Shown here: piece by piece, positions 4,257-62,024 of the stretch
Layout of the letters: the number at the start of each line of letters is the position of its first letter
Numbering within the stretch: the first letter of the stretch is position 1
From: a virus
Lineage: Duplodnaviria; Caudoviricetes
Direction: 5' to 3' (one strand)
Virus record (IMG/VR): IMGVR_UViG_3300046492_000458
Coordinates: 1,645-65,644 of that record
Length of the DNA: 64,000 nt
Position numbers and translations under genes: made by a program
Notes under the pieces: model-generated
What the model saw: the letters and a program-made list of their open reading frames with translations, nothing else
What the model was told of the DNA's origin: nothing
Databases searched by the model: none

Positions 4257-5180
4257 CTAGGCCTGCTCCTCCAGGTTCCCGGCCAGCTCTTCCAGCAGTT
4301 CACGCACCGCGCTCTCGAGTTCCTCCGCCTCCCGACGCGCCCGGGCGAGGTCGGTCTCCGCCAGGGCGCGGATCCGTTCCACCGCCTTCAGTGACTCGCT
4401 CGGCGTGAGCACCTTCGGCCCCGTCTTCTTCTCCGCCTCCTGGGTGAGCTCCTTCGGCGGGCCGTAGCCGAGGAAGTTTGCGGCATCCCGCAGCGTCTTG
4501 TCGATGACGTTGCCGTGCCGGGCCGCCTCCAGCCACGTCTCCCGCACCGCCTCGGTGCCGTGCGTCTCGAGGATCGGCACCAGAATCCGCAGGGGGCGTT
4601 CCTTCAGCTCCTGGGTGGTGATGTCCTCGAGTGCCTGCGCCACCGGCATCACTCGGATGATGTTGTTGGCCTGGTGCTTCTTGATGCCGAAGCGGGCCTC
4701 GGCGAGCTCCCCGAACGTGTCGTGTCCGGCGACCTTGTGCAGCTCCTCCACCTTCATCGCCCGCAGCCGGAGCCCGAGCCCGATCAGTTTCTGCTGTTCG
4801 GCCCGTTCGTGGTTGGCGCGGGCCGCGTACTGCACGGCGAGGATGCCCCGCGCATAGAACTCCAGCCGGGTGGCCGGGTCGTCGCTGTCCGGCTCGGTGA
4901 AGTCCGGCATCGGCAGGTACCCGGTCGCCGCGGTCCTGACGGCCGGCACAGATTCCGTTCCCGCCGATTCCGTCTCCGCGGGCTCCGCTACGGCCAGAAC
5001 GGCGGCCGGGGGTGCGGCAGGTGCCGGGACCTGCGCCACCACAGCCGCGGGCGCGGCATGCTGCTCGCGTAGCTTGCGCTGGCTGTCCTCCCACTGCCGC
5101 AGCTGGTCCTCGCGGGACTGGTCACCGCTTCCGCCGGAGCCGACGACCGGGATGACGGGGGCGACCTTCTTCGAGCTCAC
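4257..5180 (-). CDS. Putative centromere-binding partner of ParA (HTH-containing, not a classical ParB)
   Basis: Coupled to parA by a 4-bp overlap; HTH-like FGELAEARFGIKKHQANNIIR; coiled C-terminus. Confidence 0.65.
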   Translation of the reverse strand: MSSKKVAPVIPVVGSGGSGDQSREDQLRQWEDSQRKLREQHAAPAAVVAQVPAPAAPPAAVLAVAEPAETESAGTESVPAVRTAATGYLPMPDFTEPDSDDPATRLEFYARGILAVQYAARANHERAEQQKLIGLGLRLRAMKVEELHKVAGHDTFGELAEARFGIKKHQANNIIRVMPVAQALEDITTQELKERPLRILVPILETHGTEAVRETWLEAARHGNVIDKTLRDAANFLGYGPPKELTQEAEKKTGPKVLTPSESLKAVERIRALAETDLARARREAEELESAVRELLEELAGNLEEQA

Positions 5181-6322
5181 GCCGCCAACTCCTTGGCCAG
5201 GGCGCGCATGACCTGCGCCTGACCGGAGTCAGGGGCGTGCTCGAGCAGCGGGATCTGGTAGTCGGATGCCTCGCGGCCCTCGATGGCGTCCTTCAGGGTG
5301 GCCAGCACACCGGGTGTGGTGAGCTCGCTCCACCCGTCGTAGAAGGCGCGGGTGACAACGCCCTTGCGGGAGTCGTAGGCGTTCACGACGAACCCGAGCT
5401 GGTCGACGACCGCTCCGGTCATCCGGCTGTGGGTGTCGATCTGCTCGTTCAGCATCTCGTAGGCGTCGAACGAGGAACGGTCCGACCAGACGGGCATCAG
5501 GATTCCGGAGTGGTCGATCAGCTCGCCCGGGCGACGCTGGACGTAGTTGATGGCGAGGTCTATCGCCAGCCCCAGGTTCGGAGGGCCGTCCAGGACGATG
5601 ACGTCGTAGGAGTCCTCGACGGGGGCGAGCGCGCGGGCCAGGCAGGTGTCGCGGCCGACCTGGAGGAGCGCCAGCTTGGCGTCCATCAGGAAGGCGTCCT
5701 TGCTCGCGGGCAGAACGTGGAGACGGCCGCCGAACCGTTCGTGGGGGAGCGCGACGAGGGAGCGGGCCAGGTGCTTGTCGGCCTCGCCGAGCATGTGCGT
5801 GAGGAGACTGTCGGACCCGGTGGGAAGGCCAGGGATCTGCAGGCGGCTGGTGAGGTGCCCTTGGGGGTCGTAGTCGACGAGGAGAACGCGCAGGCCGGCC
5901 TCCGCCATGGCCTGGGCGAGTCCGGAGGCCACGAACGTCTTGCCGACACCACCCTTCTGGTTGCCCACCAGGATCCGCTTCACGGGCTGGGCGACGAGGC
6001 GCTCGTCGGGGGATGGGTGGGCCTTCAGCCACAGGGTGATGGCCTGGGCCATGCCCTGGACCTTCGTCAGACTGCGGGAATCGCACTCGCTTGCGAACCG
6101 GTGCGGGCCCCCAGCGGGAAGGAACACGCCCCACGACTTCGATCCCCTGGTCTCGATGTCCGGGGAGCCCGGGGTGTCGTACCAGAGACTGAGGGCGGAG
6201 GCGACGGCGTCCTGCATGTTCAGCCCGTGCTCGGCTGCCCTGATGCGCAGGTCACGGCGTAGCTCAGGAGTCAGGTTAACGAGCAACTTTTCGCGCGCTT
6301 CTTCGGCGCCTGGGTGGGTCAT
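5177..6322 (-). CDS. parA: ParA family ATPase with N-terminal RHH-like extension
   Basis: Deviant Walker A NQKGGVGKT, VLLVDYDPQG, YDVIVLDGPP. Confidence 0.92.
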   Translation of the reverse strand: MTHPGAEEAREKLLVNLTPELRRDLRIRAAEHGLNMQDAVASALSLWYDTPGSPDIETRGSKSWGVFLPAGGPHRFASECDSRSLTKVQGMAQAITLWLKAHPSPDERLVAQPVKRILVGNQKGGVGKTFVASGLAQAMAEAGLRVLLVDYDPQGHLTSRLQIPGLPTGSDSLLTHMLGEADKHLARSLVALPHERFGGRLHVLPASKDAFLMDAKLALLQVGRDTCLARALAPVEDSYDVIVLDGPPNLGLAIDLAINYVQRRPGELIDHSGILMPVWSDRSSFDAYEMLNEQIDTHSRMTGAVVDQLGFVVNAYDSRKGVVTRAFYDGWSELTTPGVLATLKDAIEGREASDYQIPLLEHAPDSGQAQVMRALAKELAA

Positions 6323-7047
6323 GGCGAGCAAATTACCAGGCGATCATGTTTTGTGAGGCGCACGTGGCGCGGCCCGACCGCCTGCGCCACCCGAACGGGC
6401 CTGCCAGGCAAGGGAGATGGCTCGGGAACACTTTGCCCGCGAGGTAAAGAGCGGGGCCTCGTCATGCGCCGACCAGATTCGGTCGAATACGTGCCGGATG
6501 ACGGGGTTTATCTGTCACCCACCTGAGTGATCCCTGTGCAAGCCCCTTCCCGGAGTGCATATATGCGCCTTGGGTGGGGGGTGCTGCCGGTCCCCACGGC
6601 CGGCGGCTGCACGGCCGGGGACAGCCCCTTGTGGATCGCAGCCCTCCGGGGGCGGCCCGGCCGCGCTGGGCACCCGGCCCGTACAGAAACCGGGGGAACG
6701 CATCTACCTGCGTGGGGAGTTCCCGGATTAGACTGCCGTCAACGAACGGGCATGCCCGGGAGGAACCGATCGGCCCCTCGAAGTGCCTGACCATTTGGCG
6801 CCCGCAGGGGCTGTTCCCGTATCTGGATGTAGCCTCTCCGTCACCCTCTGGCCAAAACCGTATCGAATGCATGTCAGTAGGTGGTCAATACCCGGCAGTG
6901 TCTTACCGACCGCCTGGTATCGATGCCACAGTGACAAGTCCGAGCGTCTGGACTGGCAGCCGGACGTGCGGGGGGCCCGGGCGGAGCCGACACCGACCGG
7001 GCGTACGAGGACCCTTCCCACTTCTGCCGGAGGAGCGGAGACGCCCC

Positions 7048-8607: not shown

Positions 8608-8644
8608 TCTTGTATTGCGTACGTAATAGAAGATGGGTTACGGT
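8608..8644 (+). promoter_or_regulatory. Conserved operator/promoter, copy 1
   Basis: TCTTGTATTGCGTACGTAATAGAAGATG; -35 TTGCGT, 18 bp, -10 TACGGT. Confidence 0.8.
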
Positions 8645-25590: not shown

Positions 25591-25624
25591 AAACAAAGAG
25601 CCCCGACCCAGAAGGGCCGGGGCT
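25591..25624 (-). terminator. Intrinsic terminator of the CRISPR-like RNA
   Basis: Minus-strand RNA AGCCCCGGCCC-UUCU-GGGUCGGGGCU then CUUUGUUU; the G-U pair forms only in this orientation. Confidence 0.75.
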
Positions 25625-25690
25625 AACCCCGCATCGGCGGGGACAACTCGAAGTACTGAACTGGAACACCCCCGCAGCAGCGGGGAGCAA
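25619..25690 (-). CRISPR. Cas-less mini-array: two degenerate type I-E-like 29-nt repeats with a 14-nt spacer
   Basis: TTGCTCCCCGCTGCTGCGGGGGTGTTCCA (25690-25662), GTTCAGTACTTCGA, GTTGTCCCCGCCGATGCGGGGTTAGCCCC (25647-25619); both have the 5+6+4+6+8 geometry of I-E repeats. Confidence 0.72.
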
Positions 25691-25934: not shown

Positions 25935-26159
25935 CTATCCCCAGGTGGTGTCGAGGGGCGTGATGGTCGGCAGGTCGACGGGAAGGGTGACGGGAAGGTC
26001 GACAGGCTCGCTGCCCCACGTGGTGTCGTCCGCGGTGTCGGAGGCGCCCCAGGTGGTGTCTATGCGGGGGGCGGCGACGGTGTGGGTGATGACGGCGCCG
26101 GTCGCTGCGGCGGTGGCGAGGGTGAGGCCGGCGACGATGCAGCGGATGCGCTTGCTCAC
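25935..26159 (-). CDS. Secreted propeptide (74 aa) with three DTTWG motifs
   Basis: AGAAGGGA RBS plus GTG; basic then hydrophobic signal peptide; RIDTTWG, DDTTWG and C-terminal PLDTTWG*. Confidence 0.8.
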   Translation of the reverse strand: MSKRIRCIVAGLTLATAAATGAVITHTVAAPRIDTTWGASDTADDTTWGSEPVDLPVTLPVDLPTITPLDTTWG

Positions 26160-26440
26160 GGGCGGGTCCCTTCTTGGGTTGTCCGGGGAACGATAACGGG
26201 GCGCCGTCCCGGTTTCCTCGTGCTCCATGTCCGCTGCGAATCCCGTTGCGTGTGGCGCGCTTTCTGGCAGTAGGCGCGTGTGGTGCGTGGGGAGGACGTG
26301 GAGTACGAGCGCCGGGGGACGCCCCGCAACTAAACTGCCGTAGAGTCTTTTCATCCTCAACCTTTGTGTGCTGCGTATCTACGCATTGCGTGTAAGCGCA
26401 GTGCAGGGCCGTATTTTTGACGGGGGATCAAGCTTTGGCC

Positions 26441-27532
26441 ATGCATTTCGGATCGAGTGATCAGGGATTCCTGTCTGCTGATGATGTTCAGGTGTTTGGC
26501 CTGATCGCGGACGGTGGAGGGGTGCCGGAGGGGTGTGCGGATTCCGTTGCCCGGTTGGCCGACCTGGGGTTTGTGAAGATCGATTCCGGGGGTGGGGACA
26601 GACCAGTCGCCCTGAATCCCGAGGACATAAAGCAGCGCACCCTCGAGGCATTGCTCACCGAGGCCGCCGAACGGGTCGCCAAAATGCGCACCTTGCACCT
26701 GATGTCGGAACAGCTGACCAAGGAGTTCGACCGCGGCCGCTCCCTGGCCGGCGGCGGCAGCGAGTACATCGACGACGCCGCAGTAGTGAACACCCGACTC
26801 GATGACCTGCTCAACTCCGCCCGCACGGAAATCCTCGCCGCCCAGCCCGGCGGACCCCGAACCAAGGAACAGCTGGAACGGTCAGTGGACCGCGACCGGG
26901 CCGCCCTCAACCGGGGGGTGTCCCTGTGCACCCTGTACCGGGACAGCGTCCGTCAGTCCTCCGCCATGGCCTCCCATATCGGGATGATGACCGGTCACGG
27001 GGCCGAGTACCGCACGCTGGTCGCCCCGTACGAGCGGGCCATCGTCATCGACCGCCGGCACGCGTTCGTGTCGGACTACGTGGTGGAGGGCTCACCCGCG
27101 CACGCGGCCTGGCATGTGACAGACCCTGCGGCGATCGGCTTCATCGTGGGCGCGTTCATGAACGCCTGGCAGCTCGCCCAGCTGTGGCGGGGAGAACCCA
27201 GGACGGAAGTCGCGGTCGAGTGGGACGGTGATACGCGCGGCGGGCACCCGGACGTCGACACCGTGTCAGGCCCGAGTGCCGGCTTGCGGACGACACCGTT
27301 GGAGCGGGTGATCCTGCGGGACATGGTCGACGGAATCCAGCAGAGCAGGACGGCGGCCCGGCTGGGCATCAGCCTTCGAACCCTGACGGATCACGTGTCG
27401 GTGTTGAAGACAAAGTTCGGTGCGGTGTCGCCGGCGCAGCTGGGCTGCAAGTTCGCCTTGGCGCCCGACTACCACTTCGATGACAGCGCCCCATTGGCCG
27501 ACGTACCCAAGACCGGCCAGCCGACGGCCTGA
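26441..27532 (+). CDS. Transcriptional regulator: TrmB-like sensor domain plus C-terminal LuxR-type HTH
   Basis: EILAAQPGG, ERAIVIDRRHAFV; ERVILRDMVDG.....AARLGISLRTL..HVS.L..KFG..S..QLG. Confidence 0.85.
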   Translation: MHFGSSDQGFLSADDVQVFGLIADGGGVPEGCADSVARLADLGFVKIDSGGGDRPVALNPEDIKQRTLEALLTEAAERVAKMRTLHLMSEQLTKEFDRGRSLAGGGSEYIDDAAVVNTRLDDLLNSARTEILAAQPGGPRTKEQLERSVDRDRAALNRGVSLCTLYRDSVRQSSAMASHIGMMTGHGAEYRTLVAPYERAIVIDRRHAFVSDYVVEGSPAHAAWHVTDPAAIGFIVGAFMNAWQLAQLWRGEPRTEVAVEWDGDTRGGHPDVDTVSGPSAGLRTTPLERVILRDMVDGIQQSRTAARLGISLRTLTDHVSVLKTKFGAVSPAQLGCKFALAPDYHFDDSAPLADVPKTGQPTA

Positions 27533-27536
27533 ACGG

Positions 27537-28055
27537 TCAGGACGGCCGTTTCCTGGTCGCGTTGGACGGCTGCACGCCCTTCAGCACGGCCAGCTCCCGC
27601 TGAACCTCGGTGAGCCTGGCGAGGTATTCGGCGGCCTGCGCTTGCCAGTCCGGCGCAGCGCCCGCTCGCACCCGCCCGGTCATGAAACGGTCCCAGCCCT
27701 CCAGGGCGTGCTCGAGGTCCCGGATGCGGCCGCGGAGGCCTTCCCGGTCCCGGTCCTTCCGCAGCTCGGCCACCTCGGCCTCGAGGCGCCGCACGTCCGC
27801 CGCGGTCCGGGCCTTCTGCCGCTCCCGTCCCTTGTCGTAGCCGCGGCCGAACGCCGCCCGCCGTTCCTCCCGCGGGCACTCCGCAATCCACGACATCAGG
27901 GCCTGGGCGGCATCCCGGTGCTCTTGTGCGCGCTCGGGGTCTTCCTGCTCGAGCTCGGCGATGCCGCGGTAGTCGTACTCGCGGGACAGCCGGTCGGCCA
28001 GGAGCGCCTCCCGGTCCGGTTCCGGCCCATCATCGGCGGGCTGTTGCGCGGTCAC
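27537..28055 (-). CDS. Coiled-coil hypothetical protein
   Basis: GGAGG RBS; heptad pattern. Confidence 0.7.
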   Translation of the reverse strand: MTAQQPADDGPEPDREALLADRLSREYDYRGIAELEQEDPERAQEHRDAAQALMSWIAECPREERRAAFGRGYDKGRERQKARTAADVRRLEAEVAELRKDRDREGLRGRIRDLEHALEGWDRFMTGRVRAGAAPDWQAQAAEYLARLTEVQRELAVLKGVQPSNATRKRPS

Positions 28056-28880: not shown

Positions 28881-29243
28881 TCAGGCCCCCTTCTTGCTGC
28901 GGCCGCTGTACCAAGGCAGGGCCAGGCCGTCGTTCTCCGCTCGAGGAACGAGGTGGACGTGAAGGTGAAACACGCTCTGCGTCGCTTCCCGGCCGCGCGA
29001 GGTGATCAGGTTCATGGGCTGATCGGTCTCGGCTGCGAGTTCGGATGCCCGGTAGGTGGTGGTGGCGGACACAACCGGGTCGTCGGCGAAGTCGGTGACG
29101 TGCTCCCGCGGGATGACGAGGACGTGGCCGGGGACGACAGGGCCGCGCGGCACGATGGCGATGACGTCGTCCCACTCGCGGATGAACGTGGCGGGCGCAC
29201 GGCCTGCGGAGATCTCGCAGAACGGGCAGGGCTGCTCAGGCAC
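28881..29243 (-). CDS. HIT family nucleotide hydrolase
   Basis: CPFCEI, PVVPGHVLVIPREH, QSVFHLHVHLVPR histidine triad. Confidence 0.92.
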   Translation of the reverse strand: MPEQPCPFCEISAGRAPATFIREWDDVIAIVPRGPVVPGHVLVIPREHVTDFADDPVVSATTTYRASELAAETDQPMNLITSRGREATQSVFHLHVHLVPRAENDGLALPWYSGRSKKGA

Positions 29244-29245
29244 GG

Positions 29246-30178
29246 TCAGTCCTCCTTCGGCTTGTTGGCGTCTTCGATCTGCTTGGCGACCTTGATGGCG
29301 TTGGCGATCCACCAGCGGTGGTGGTTGGCCTGGATGGTCTGGTCGGTGGGGATGTCGTGCTGCTTTGCGAGGTCCCACAGGCCTTGGTCGCCGGCGCAGT
29401 CGATGTCGTTGTGGACGTGGCCGGGGGTGTCGTCTTCGCAGTTCGCGCCGACGAGGATCGCGTAGAGGAGGGCGTCGACCTTGTCGGCGGTCCAGTCGCG
29501 GGAGTCGAGGGTGATACGGGTACGGAGGGCTTCGAGGGCGGTCTTCGCGCCGAGGAGGGCGGGGACGGCGGTCGTGTAGGCGAGGAAGCAGGACCGGGCG
29601 AAGTCTCGGAGGTCCTCGTGGTCGGCTTCGGCGTCCCACAGCCGGTCGTACAGCTCGGCGAGCGTGGCCTCGGTGTGCTCGGTGAGGGGGATCCGGTGCT
29701 CGGGGTCGGTGATCGGCGGGGCGGCTGGCAGCTTGCCGTCCACGGTGAGGAGGTGCTGCTCCCACAGGGCGCGCAGGACGCCGTGCCAGGTCTGCGGGGC
29801 TGGCGTCCACCCGCAGGCGCAGTCGACGCTCCAACGGTCGCTGGGCAGCTTCAGACGGCGGGGAAAGTGGTCGGTGACCAGCTGCTTGTGGTCGGGGCAG
29901 ATGTGGCCGCCGGCGGGAAAGACGCTGCCGGAGCCGAGTGTGGACCAGCCCTTCCCGGACCATTCGGGCCGCGGCGGGGTCTCACCGGTCATGGTGGAGA
30001 CCGCGTCGTACTGGCGCATGCAGCCGGGCACCAGGCAGGTTCGGAGGGATGGCTGGTTCAGGATCGCTTCGCTGATGGCGTCGTCGACGGCTTGTTCGGG
30101 GCTGGTTCCGCGGTTCGCTGCGTCGGCCGCGCCAATCAGGTCCAGGAGCAGGTCCCGGGCCTCGGTCTTCCCACTCAC
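29246..30178 (-). CDS. Hypothetical Cys-rich protein
   Basis: AAGGA RBS; CLVPGC, CPDH, CACGW. Confidence 0.72.
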   Translation of the reverse strand: MSGKTEARDLLLDLIGAADAANRGTSPEQAVDDAISEAILNQPSLRTCLVPGCMRQYDAVSTMTGETPPRPEWSGKGWSTLGSGSVFPAGGHICPDHKQLVTDHFPRRLKLPSDRWSVDCACGWTPAPQTWHGVLRALWEQHLLTVDGKLPAAPPITDPEHRIPLTEHTEATLAELYDRLWDAEADHEDLRDFARSCFLAYTTAVPALLGAKTALEALRTRITLDSRDWTADKVDALLYAILVGANCEDDTPGHVHNDIDCAGDQGLWDLAKQHDIPTDQTIQANHHRWWIANAIKVAKQIEDANKPKED

Positions 30179-30753
30179 GGGGTGGTCCTTTCGGGGCAGG
30201 TGGGGTGCTGGCGTTGCGCGTCGCCGATGGCGACCGGGTAGTCGTAGCCGCCGAGGAGCGGGCGGGAGCTCTCTCCGCGGGCCGGGCAGGACCGGCACTG
30301 CCAGTACTCGCCGTTCCGGTCACGCTGCAGGTCGAACTTGTCGTAGAACGGGAGCAACTCGGCGGCACGGCGGGTGTAGATGGTGGTGCGCTGCTTGTAG
30401 TCCTTGTAGGTGGCGCAGTCCGGGGCTGGGCCGTCGATGTGCTCGTTCCAGGCCGGCAGGTAGTCGGGGTGCGTTCGGTAGAGGCGGGCGAGGCCGCGCA
30501 TGGTCTGGCAGGGGACTCCGCTTCCGGAGACCGTGCAGGTGATGCACCGGCCTGCGGAGTCTCCGCGGGAGTCGATCCAGATGTTGTGGTCGGCGGCGAT
30601 GAGGTAGAGGGAGTCGATGCGGTTGAGCTCGGCGGCCTGGCTGTCGCCGGGCGGCATCTGTTCGGCGGCGGTCTGGGATTCGGCGAGGCGGGCGTACACG
30701 AAGTCCTCGCAGTGGAACTCCCACCGCCAGGCGGGATCGTCCGGGCCGGTCAC
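30175..30753 (-). CDS. Hypothetical protein (DUF6221-like N-terminus)
   Basis: FVYARLAE...PCQTMRGLARLYRTHPDYLPAW. Confidence 0.65.
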   Translation of the reverse strand: MTGPDDPAWRWEFHCEDFVYARLAESQTAAEQMPPGDSQAAELNRIDSLYLIAADHNIWIDSRGDSAGRCITCTVSGSGVPCQTMRGLARLYRTHPDYLPAWNEHIDGPAPDCATYKDYKQRTTIYTRRAAELLPFYDKFDLQRDRNGEYWQCRSCPARGESSRPLLGGYDYPVAIGDAQRQHPTCPERTTP

Positions 30754-60638: not shown

Positions 60639-62024
60639 GTGGCCCTCGACCTCGAGCCGGATGCCTGGCTGAAGCGGCTGATTGCGGCGCACGACAACGA
60701 CCTGCCGCAGCTGCGGTTGATGGACAGCTACTACGAGGGCACGCAGCCTCTGTCGTATCTGGCGCCGGAGATCCAGTCGGAGCTGTCGGACCGGATGCGG
60801 CAGCTGGTCATCAACTGGCCGCAGCTGGTCGTCGATGCGCTGGATGAGCGGCTGGACGTCGAGGGTTTCCGGTACGCGGACTCGGAGACGACGGCCGAGG
60901 ATCTGTGGTCGGTGTGGCAGGCCTCCGACATGGACGAGGGCAGTCAGCAGGCCCACGTTGACGCGCTGGCGCTGAAGCGCTCCTATGTGATCATCGGTGC
61001 GAACGAGACCGACGAGTCGACGCCGATCATCACGGCCGAGTCCGCGCTGGAAGTCTTCGCCGAGCGGGATCCGCGGACGCGTCAGGTGATGGCGGCGATC
61101 AAGCGGTGGGATGAGCCCGCGGCGGCCGGGTCCGCTCCGGTGAAGTGGGCGACGCTGTATCTACCGAAGAAGCGGTGCACGTTCGAGCAGCAGAAGGGCG
61201 TCTGGGTCGAAGTCGACCGGGACGAGCACAACGTGGGCCAGGTGCTGGTGGTACCGCTGGCGAACCGGCCGCGGCTTCGGCATCTGGACGGCACGTCTGA
61301 GCTGCGTTCGGTGATTCCGATCTCGGACGCGGCATGCAAGATCGCCTCGGACATGATGGTGTCTGCGGAGTATCACGCGATGCCGCGCCGGTGGGCGACG
61401 GGCATGTCCCGGGATGATTTCGCCGACGAGAACGGGCAGCCGCTCGGCGCAATGTCGTCACTGGCGGGCCGTCTGTGGGTGAACGAGGGCGAGAGCGTCA
61501 AGTTCGGCCAGTTCCCCGAGGCGCAGCTCTCGAACTTCCACGAGACGATCAACGTTCTTGCCCGGCTGGTGGCCGCCCTGACAGGCCTGCCTCCCGCGTT
61601 CCTCGGCCTGGCCACCGACCAGCCGCCGTCGGCGGATGCGATCCGTGCGTCGGAGGCCCGCCTGGTGAAGCGTGCGGAACGCAGGCAGCGGGCGTTCGGT
61701 GAGGCGTGGGAGAGGGTGATGAGGCTCGTTCTGCTCGTGCGGGACGGCGACTTGGACCCGCGGACCCGCAAGCTGGAGACGGTCTGGCGGGACCCGGCGA
61801 CGCCGACCTACGCCCAGAAGGCGGACGCGGTCGTCAAGCTGCACACCAGCGGCATTCTGCCGACGGAGCAGGCCTGGGAGGACCTCGGCTACTCGGCGGT
61901 GCAGCGGGACCGGATGCGGGGCATGCAGGATGAAGCCCTGACCCGTATGACCGCGATGGATCTACAGCAGCTGTCTACGGCCCAGCCGGAGCCGCAGCCC
62001 TTCGAGGCCCCTCCGGGAGGCTGA
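60639..62024 (+). CDS. Phage portal protein (SPP1 gp6-like)
   Basis: YYEG.Q, NWPQLVVD, G.SEL, P.R..TG, SADAIRA, W.DP. Confidence 0.93.
   Translation: MALDLEPDAWLKRLIAAHDNDLPQLRLMDSYYEGTQPLSYLAPEIQSELSDRMRQLVINWPQLVVDALDERLDVEGFRYADSETTAEDLWSVWQASDMDEGSQQAHVDALALKRSYVIIGANETDESTPIITAESALEVFAERDPRTRQVMAAIKRWDEPAAAGSAPVKWATLYLPKKRCTFEQQKGVWVEVDRDEHNVGQVLVVPLANRPRLRHLDGTSELRSVIPISDAACKIASDMMVSAEYHAMPRRWATGMSRDDFADENGQPLGAMSSLAGRLWVNEGESVKFGQFPEAQLSNFHETINVLARLVAALTGLPPAFLGLATDQPPSADAIRASEARLVKRAERRQRAFGEAWERVMRLVLLVRDGDLDPRTRKLETVWRDPATPTYAQKADAVVKLHTSGILPTEQAWEDLGYSAVQRDRMRGMQDEALTRMTAMDLQQLSTAQPEPQPFEAPPGG

Follow-up and report, generated by a model that had tools for sequence, protein, structure and literature searches.

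What is the function of a short, signal-peptide-bearing product whose gene lies head to head with that of a transcriptional regulator in a phage genome? The question is raised by 64,000 nucleotides of viral DNA (Duplodnaviria; Caudoviricetes), positions 1,645 to 65,644 of the IMG/VR record IMGVR_UViG_3300046492_000458, referred to below as the window, in which a gene carrying the unit DTTWG three times diverges from a gene for a regulator with two kinds of DNA-binding domain. It is somewhat probable that this two-gene cassette serves gene-encoded peptide signalling in the manner of the arbitrium and Rap-Phr systems, with a cytoplasmic receptor that is not built of tetratricopeptide repeats (TPR).

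The peptide gene and its linkage to the regulator family

On translation the small open reading frame (ORF) yields VSKRIRCIVAGLTLATAAATGAVITHTVAAPRIDTTWGASDTADDTTWGSEPVDLPVTLPVDLPTITPLDTTWG. DTTWG stands at residues 34–38, 45–49 and 70–74, the third copy abutting the stop codon. Residues 1 to about 30 resemble a signal peptide, with K3, R4 and R6, some 20 hydrophobic or small residues and then VAA (Sec-like n, h and c regions, as judged visually and with a crude script rule), and the remainder, which carries the units, is rich in T, P, D and G. An arginine pair is found in the N-termini of some relatives, and Tat export could fit too. An earlier note on this DNA, made from the sequence alone, had described a 74-aa ORF with a ribosome-binding site (RBS) and three DTTWG copies, the last at the stop codon; translation, conservation of the RBS and the G+C content of third codon positions (GC3) confirm this description.

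Spurious ORFs are common in high-GC DNA (58 ORFs of at least 40 aa lie within 6 kb here), and the peptide ORF is short and without a family; PHROGs and NCBIfam hold no family that matched either the peptide or the regulator. Nevertheless, GC3 is 0.91 in frame and 0.61–0.62 in the other two frames, and a purine-rich block occupies the RBS position before the start in 28/28 aligned relatives. The DTTWG copies (n = 27, from ten loci) differ by synonymous changes only (ACC/ACG for Thr; GGC/GGA/GGT for Gly), indicating selection on the peptide and not on the DNA word. Units are retained in six protein relatives of the 74-aa peptide, the unit keeps its place at the stop codon even where its sequence changes, and relatives have been recorded as proteins by gene callers and annotators. 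That the ORF is not a real gene, or that its repeats are a by-product of repeats at the DNA level, is thus extremely improbable.

The regulator belongs to a large family, in which 1129 representatives score at an E-value of 0.001 or lower and 27 at 1e-30 or lower. Many close homologues are encoded on contigs of 85–100 kb; 101 plasmid records match the regulator, 97 of them from Streptomyces, and among cultured phages one match was obtained, Chymera. Single-sequence scans of genome and viral contigs with the regulator gave no matches, and loci were recovered by alignment-based scans. The resulting set (63 genome loci, 19 viral loci, one plasmid and Chymera, minus five same-contig duplicates, plus the window) comprises 80 non-redundant loci. 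A search for DxxW peptide ORFs beside homologous regulators had been proposed in the earlier note. It was carried out by a script that accepted ORFs of 30–130 aa within 1.5 kb of the regulator, having a basic and then hydrophobic N-terminus, GC3 of at least 0.68 and the motif [D/E]xxW with W among the last three residues (0–2 residues after W). Such a signal-peptide ORF was found in 55/80 loci, and in 60/80 when the GC3 filter was dropped (L037, L038, L041, L064 and L084 being added). In the same loci, 56 candidates fell within 229.5 kb near regulators and none within 211.7 kb farther off. The pairing persists in three arrangements (peptide gene divergent upstream, convergent downstream, or co-directional about 1 kb downstream) and in three settings, namely plasmids or viral contigs of about 90 kb, integrative phages and Kitasatospora chromosomes.

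Among the 55 precursors, 26 different terminal units were counted, for instance DTTWG, DTAWG, DTGWG, DTWWG, DTHWG, DSTWG, DSVWG, DSAWG, DVGWG and DPGWG, and further DTGWN, DTIWN, DWEWQ, DFQWN and DLIWT. DPGWG is the unit of Chymera, and DTAWG that of L079, an 89.7-kb plasmid of S. ambofaciens ATCC 23877. Positions D1 and W4 are invariant or nearly so. Eight precursors hold a single copy; of the 47 with several, 37 have identical copies and ten have copies that differ by one residue. The final copy abuts the stop codon in nearly all precursors, and in Chymera gp30, L049, L054 and L059 the first copy directly follows an A-x-A signal-peptidase-type site, which delimits the shared unit to five residues. 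Within the mobile clade, A/T/S-P-P/A comes after internal copies and V/I-T-P-L before the last copy; these conserved flanks look like processing determinants.

Repeated identical short cores with an invariant Trp would also suit a multi-core precursor of a ribosomally synthesized and post-translationally modified peptide (RiPP), for example one altered at Trp by enzymes that the host encodes elsewhere, and multi-core precursors are known in several RiPP classes. In agreement with the earlier note, which had seen no modifying enzyme next to the pair, no peptide-modifying enzyme family was found among the window's neighbours (Pfam, PHROGs) and no consistently linked one in the 80 loci, which weakens this alternative. 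The N-terminus resembles an export signal rather than a leader, so that export would precede modification. In addition, an element that moves between hosts could not depend on a host enzyme, and the sole constant partner of the precursor is a transcription factor. A RiPP-like product is accordingly considered improbable.

The genes that neighbour the pair in the window reappear in 2–15 of the 80 loci, and no gene consistently accompanies the pair. The convergent gene at 27537–28055 is 76–81% identical in L011, L021 and L071–L074, where the regulators are 43–49% identical (81% against 47% in L073), and 50–54% identical in L004 and L005, where the regulators are 74–80% identical (54% against 80% in L004). 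Across L004–L079, the flanks 27537–28055 and 29246–30298 reach up to 89% identity where the regulator shows 43%. The peptide unit goes with the regulator and not with the flank. In view of these decoupled histories, related elements seem to exchange the regulator–peptide pair as one unit. A tyrosine integrase adjoins the pair in Chymera and L083.

The regulator and the intergenic region

An AlphaFold2 model of the regulator, built on an alignment of 26 homologues, reached a mean pLDDT of 78.5 and a pTM of 0.45; its domains are given in Table 1. Searched against the PDB with Foldseek, the model found TrmBL2 and TrmB as top matches (3qph, 5bpi; E 5e-12 to 1e-9, probability 1.00), followed by Nuc and other nucleases of the PLD family for the alpha/beta domain. 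The TM-scores to TrmB-family structures are low (0.30–0.45) because the domains are oriented differently. The order of the TrmB fold, a winged helix-turn-helix (wHTH), a coiled-coil helix and a PLD-like effector domain, is present in the model. Sequence membership in the TrmB family was not reached, Pfam Regulator_TrmB scoring 15.8 bits under a cut-off of 22.2, and GerE likewise scored 20.5 bits with the single sequence, under a cut-off of 23.5. A profile of the 26 homologues, compared with the PDB, matched only the helix-turn-helix (HTH) domains of NarL, RhlR and FixJ over residues 267–326 (E from 4e-5 for NarL to 8e-3), and many regulator homologues carry PF00196. The earlier assignment of a 363-aa protein with a TrmB-like sensor and a LuxR-type HTH thus holds through the fold and the HTH profile, its Pfam scores being weak. 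Pfam revealed no TPR family in the regulator at E up to 0.1, and the model is TrmB/PLD-like, as expected from the earlier statement that the receptor is not a TPR protein.

According to the model, the regulator resembles TrmB and TrmBL2 in the succession of wHTH, long helix and PLD-like alpha/beta domain; it differs in a sequence similarity under the Pfam cut-off and in an extra C-terminal LuxR-type HTH after a disordered linker. A prediction of the complex between the regulator and precursor residues 31–74, made without controls, returned a score of 0.00 and speaks neither for nor against binding.

The distance between the two start codons, formerly put at about 280 bp, was measured as 281 bp. 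The 38-locus intergenic alignment points to an alternative start for the regulator at TTG 26435, which precedes the ATG by two codons. Most of the 38 loci, several of them without the ATG, conserve CTTTGGCC in front of the regulator gene as well as a GGGGGA block lying 7 nt ahead of this sequence, and TTG 26435 may be the true start.

The intergenic dyad ACGCATTGCGT to which the earlier note drew attention is present at 26381–26391, as a single occurrence in the window. Taken alone it is at chance level, 0.95 matches being expected with one mismatch and the observed two being reached by 28/100 shuffles; it is part, however, of a conserved double palindrome, the candidate operator of Table 1. 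The end bases of this double palindrome are invariant in 5/5 close loci and its inner bases vary between clades, and two copies of TGCG-N6-CGCA recur in most of the 38 aligned loci. We infer that the regulator binds the double palindrome. Two 28-bp repeats at 8608 and 33206 have TTGCGT in common with the operator and lack the palindrome. A consensus scan of the intergenic region detected no sigma-70-like promoter.

Between the candidate operator and the peptide RBS lies a conserved non-coding stretch, with 30 invariant columns in 28 loci whose regulators are only 38–80% identical. The spacing of its four blocks shifts by a few bases and takes all three classes modulo 3, so that no ORF spans the blocks. 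An in-frame upstream extension of the peptide gene (TTG 26360, 141 aa) was accordingly rejected, RBS and start being conserved at 26159 and the block spacings not being multiples of three. The stretch could act as a leader RNA, as a promoter of unusual type or as a set of further protein-binding sites. A long-range helix of 19 pairs is predicted in it, nearly all of them invariant (covariation term -0.07); since the pairs never vary, RNA structure is neither supported nor excluded. No Rfam family matches the stretch.

On the other side of the peptide gene, about 270 bp downstream of it, positions 25593–25665 (minus strand) form an 11-pair GC-rich hairpin with a T-rich tail, where Rfam gave two sub-threshold matches to small RNAs.

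Table 1. Coordinates of the cassette, of the domains of its regulator and of two further genes of the element
Feature	Position	Strand	Basis or remark
Pre-pro-peptide gene, 74 codons, GTG start	25935–26159	minus	translation, GC3, relatives
Ribosome-binding site AAGAAGGGA	26167–26175	minus	7 nt upstream of the GTG
Conserved non-coding stretch, four blocks at near-fixed spacing	26176–26349	minus	28-locus alignment
Candidate operator TGCGTATCTACGCATTGCGTGTAAGCGCA, 29 bp, two adjacent 14-bp palindromes (TGCG-N6-CGCA twice), contains the dyad	26372–26400		alignment
Regulator gene, 363 aa	26441–27532	plus	281 bp from the peptide start codon, head to head
Regulator, wHTH	residues 13–57		AlphaFold2 model
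Regulator, 44-residue helix	residues 60–103		AlphaFold2 model
Regulator, TrmB/PLD-like alpha/beta domain	residues 107–245		AlphaFold2 model
Regulator, disordered linker	residues 257–279		AlphaFold2 model
Regulator, LuxR/FixJ-type four-helix HTH	residues 286–345		AlphaFold2 model
ParA-type ATPase gene	5177–6331	minus	
SPP1-type portal gene	60639–62024	plus	

Proposed peptide signalling and its alternatives

Whereas the analysis shows the gene pair and its conservation, the limits of the five-residue unit, its diversity between elements and the fold of the regulator, we infer how the peptide would be exported, cleaved, taken up and bound, in which direction it would regulate and to what biological effect. 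The proposed course is as follows. The small gene would give rise to a pre-pro-peptide that is exported by way of its signal peptide, and extracellular cleavage of the disordered pro-peptide would release up to three molecules of DTTWG or slightly longer forms. The peptide would build up with the density of element-carrying mycelium, be re-imported by an oligopeptide permease of the host and bind the TrmB/PLD-like domain of the adjacent regulator. Binding would alter the occupancy of the double palindrome by the regulator, and this in turn would change leftward transcription (of the peptide gene, the conserved leader and anything beyond) as well as transcription of the regulator itself.

Several comparisons argue for peptide signalling of this kind. 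Linkage together with the near/far control, the persistence of the pair across arrangements and settings, and the delimitation of a five-residue unit all point to it, as do units that are uniform within and diverse between precursors, changes that are only synonymous, and the want of any other linked gene. The mosaic position of the cassette relative to its flanks and its adjacency to an integrase in Chymera and L083 are consistent with it, and so is, in the predicted fold, a TrmB-family domain of the ligand-binding type placed between DNA-binding domains.

Other observations weigh against it. No copy of the candidate operator beyond chance was found elsewhere in the window, the sole copy lying inside the module, so that no target deciding lysis or transfer could be identified. 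No candidate peptide was found by either filter in 18/80 loci, including L014–L018 and three partial matches, and two further loci, L009 and L051, have atypical candidates only. DNA downstream of the peptide gene is unconserved between relatives, and no RNA runs containing this stretch are listed; 20 rhizosphere or soil DNA runs contain at least half of it, nine of these being flagged as possible sources. Units follow the clades of the regulator tree (75/80 rows, with L030, L055 and L063–L065 omitted for odd or partial length), a match that is to be expected of any adjacent genes. Regulator columns that track the third residue of the unit are few, concern the T and W groups only and are confounded by relatedness. 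Neither the tree nor the column search therefore showed the covariation that the earlier note had hoped for beyond co-inheritance of neighbours; its interpretation as an analogous signalling system with a different receptor fold is partly supported, by the linkage and by the non-TPR fold, and not by covariation. Finally, the peptide receptors known from such systems are TPR proteins, and we know of no precedent for peptide binding by a TrmB/PLD-like domain.

The atypical loci can be described as follows. In L009 (2449–2685, minus strand) the precursor has two internal DTTWG units and a different C-terminus from which the terminal unit is absent; this copy may have suffered a frameshift or be decaying. 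In L051, two DSGWP units precede an 11-residue tail. L014–L018, from Streptomyces, encode five near-identical regulators of about 39–40% identity, and a distance of 3 kb around them holds no candidate peptide gene; the gene upstream of the regulator in L017 is a 290-aa ORF on the other strand. These regulators could be orphan receptors; alternatively, the gene for their peptide could lie at another site.

The pattern of variation within the regulator bears on the main alternative. Mean identity is 33–35% in the wHTH and helix and 56% in the PLD-like domain, and a variable wHTH and helix beside a conserved PLD-like domain could reflect diverging DNA specificity just as well as diverging ligand specificity. 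The regulator could control the peptide gene and sense another ligand, such as a small molecule, the secreted peptide being an output that acts elsewhere (extracellularly, on a membrane sensor, on a surface or cell-wall target, or in the exclusion of related elements). TrmB senses sugars, and the TrmB family is known for such ligands; a PLD-like domain that is the most conserved part of the regulator would be expected for a common ligand. Moreover, divergent genes with a shared candidate operator show co-regulation at most, and the hypervariability of the cassette could mirror regulator–operator specificity, as in phage immunity regions. Nevertheless, this alternative leaves the diversity of units between cassettes and their uniformity within precursors unexplained unless the target has diversified as well, no gene for a second receptor accompanies the pair, and the pairing is kept where a shared operator is impossible, for instance in convergent chromosomal loci. 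We therefore regard sensing of another ligand as rather unlikely.

On the preferred reading, peptide signalling, the pair can be set beside known systems. Passages of PMC10075063 give as RRNPP criteria a pro-peptide of 10–100 aa, secretion by Sec, a receptor of 250–500 aa with peptide-binding TPRs, and neighbouring genes. The precursor (74 aa), the receptor (363 aa) and the spacing (281 bp) agree with these criteria as there stated (PMC10075063), and the regulator bears no TPR. As TPRs are the defining criterion, the pair would be RRNPP-like in its working and not an RRNPP member.

The arbitrium system of Bacillus phages (AimR-AimP-AimX), as described in passages of PMC13220667 and as generally known, would share with the present pair its carriage by temperate phages, a small secreted pro-peptide with a C-terminal active peptide, an adjacent cytoplasmic DNA-binding receptor and peptide variants that differ between phages; the adjacency of the pair to an integrase in Chymera and L083 offers a further parallel. 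In contrast to arbitrium, the receptor here is TrmB/PLD-like with a LuxR-type HTH instead of a TPR protein, the precursor holds the unit two to four times, the two genes diverge, the hosts belong to the Actinomycetota, and no aimX-like output was found. Rap-Phr provides another comparison. In the Bacillus phages phi3T and phi105, the putative pheromones of phage-borne pro-peptides are tandemly duplicated and released by extracellular proteolysis, as reported in excerpts of PMC11343458, and the copies differing by one residue in 10/55 precursors here resemble the route to new specificities proposed in the same excerpts (PMC11343458). Unlike the present regulator, Rap receptors are TPR proteins and mostly inhibitors of proteins; invariant D and W residues mark the present units, and the conserved flanks differ.

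The pheromone ComX of Bacillus subtilis, a short C-terminal peptide whose tryptophan is essential, varies from strain to strain; it requires ComQ, a prenyltransferase encoded by a linked gene, and is detected by a kinase in the membrane. The units described here likewise would be short, C-terminal, Trp-containing and polymorphic, whereas no genes of the ComQ or kinase type are linked to them.

Full-text searches found no description of the peptide–regulator pair in the literature, supplementary candidate lists such as that of PMC10075063 not being covered. According to passages of the same paper, Actinomycetota typically signal by enzyme-made small molecules, and peptides matured from encoded pro-peptides mark Firmicutes (PMC10075063). 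A wider proposal, which we advance tentatively, is that Actinomycetota have in this cassette their first family of gene-encoded peptide pheromones, sensed by a TrmB/PLD-like fold with a LuxR-type HTH never before tied to peptides. Streptomyces phage-plasmids and temperate phages might thereby gauge the number of their own kind and decide whether to be carried quietly, to lyse the host or to transfer, with at least 26 D-x-x-W units serving as private channels; the non-coding leader could possibly be the regulated output RNA, comparable to aimX. If true, this would extend 'communication' of phages and plasmids to the Streptomycetaceae, the main antibiotic-producing bacteria, add a new peptide-binding receptor fold, and supply naturally orthogonal triples of peptide, regulator and operator for synthetic biology. 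The proposal is directly testable: phage Chymera, its host S. venezuelae ATCC 10712 and several sequenced strains that bear plasmids are available, and the predicted ligands are plain pentapeptides, with a calculated monoisotopic mass of about 578.23 Da for DTTWG.

Genomic surroundings of the cassette

The viral record that contains the window is 65.6 kb long, with a completeness of 82%, and the G+C content of the window is 68.6%. A ParA-type ATPase together with an SPP1-type portal (Table 1) fits a phage that is also maintained as a plasmid, that is, a phage-plasmid of the Streptomyces type.

On Kitasatospora chromosomes (L037, 48–6824; also L035, L049 and L033), the locus is found directly downstream of grpE-dnaJ-hspR. 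Besides the regulator and a peptide gene convergent with it, the locus comprises a gene with weak similarity to nucleoside 2-deoxyribosyltransferase, another, paralogous regulator and one more gene of the LuxR type. In the window itself, a HIT-family gene at 28881–29300 (minus strand; Pfam E 3e-16) has its DNA relatives in the 185–200-kb Streptomyces phages Frankenweenie, JustBecause and Kela.

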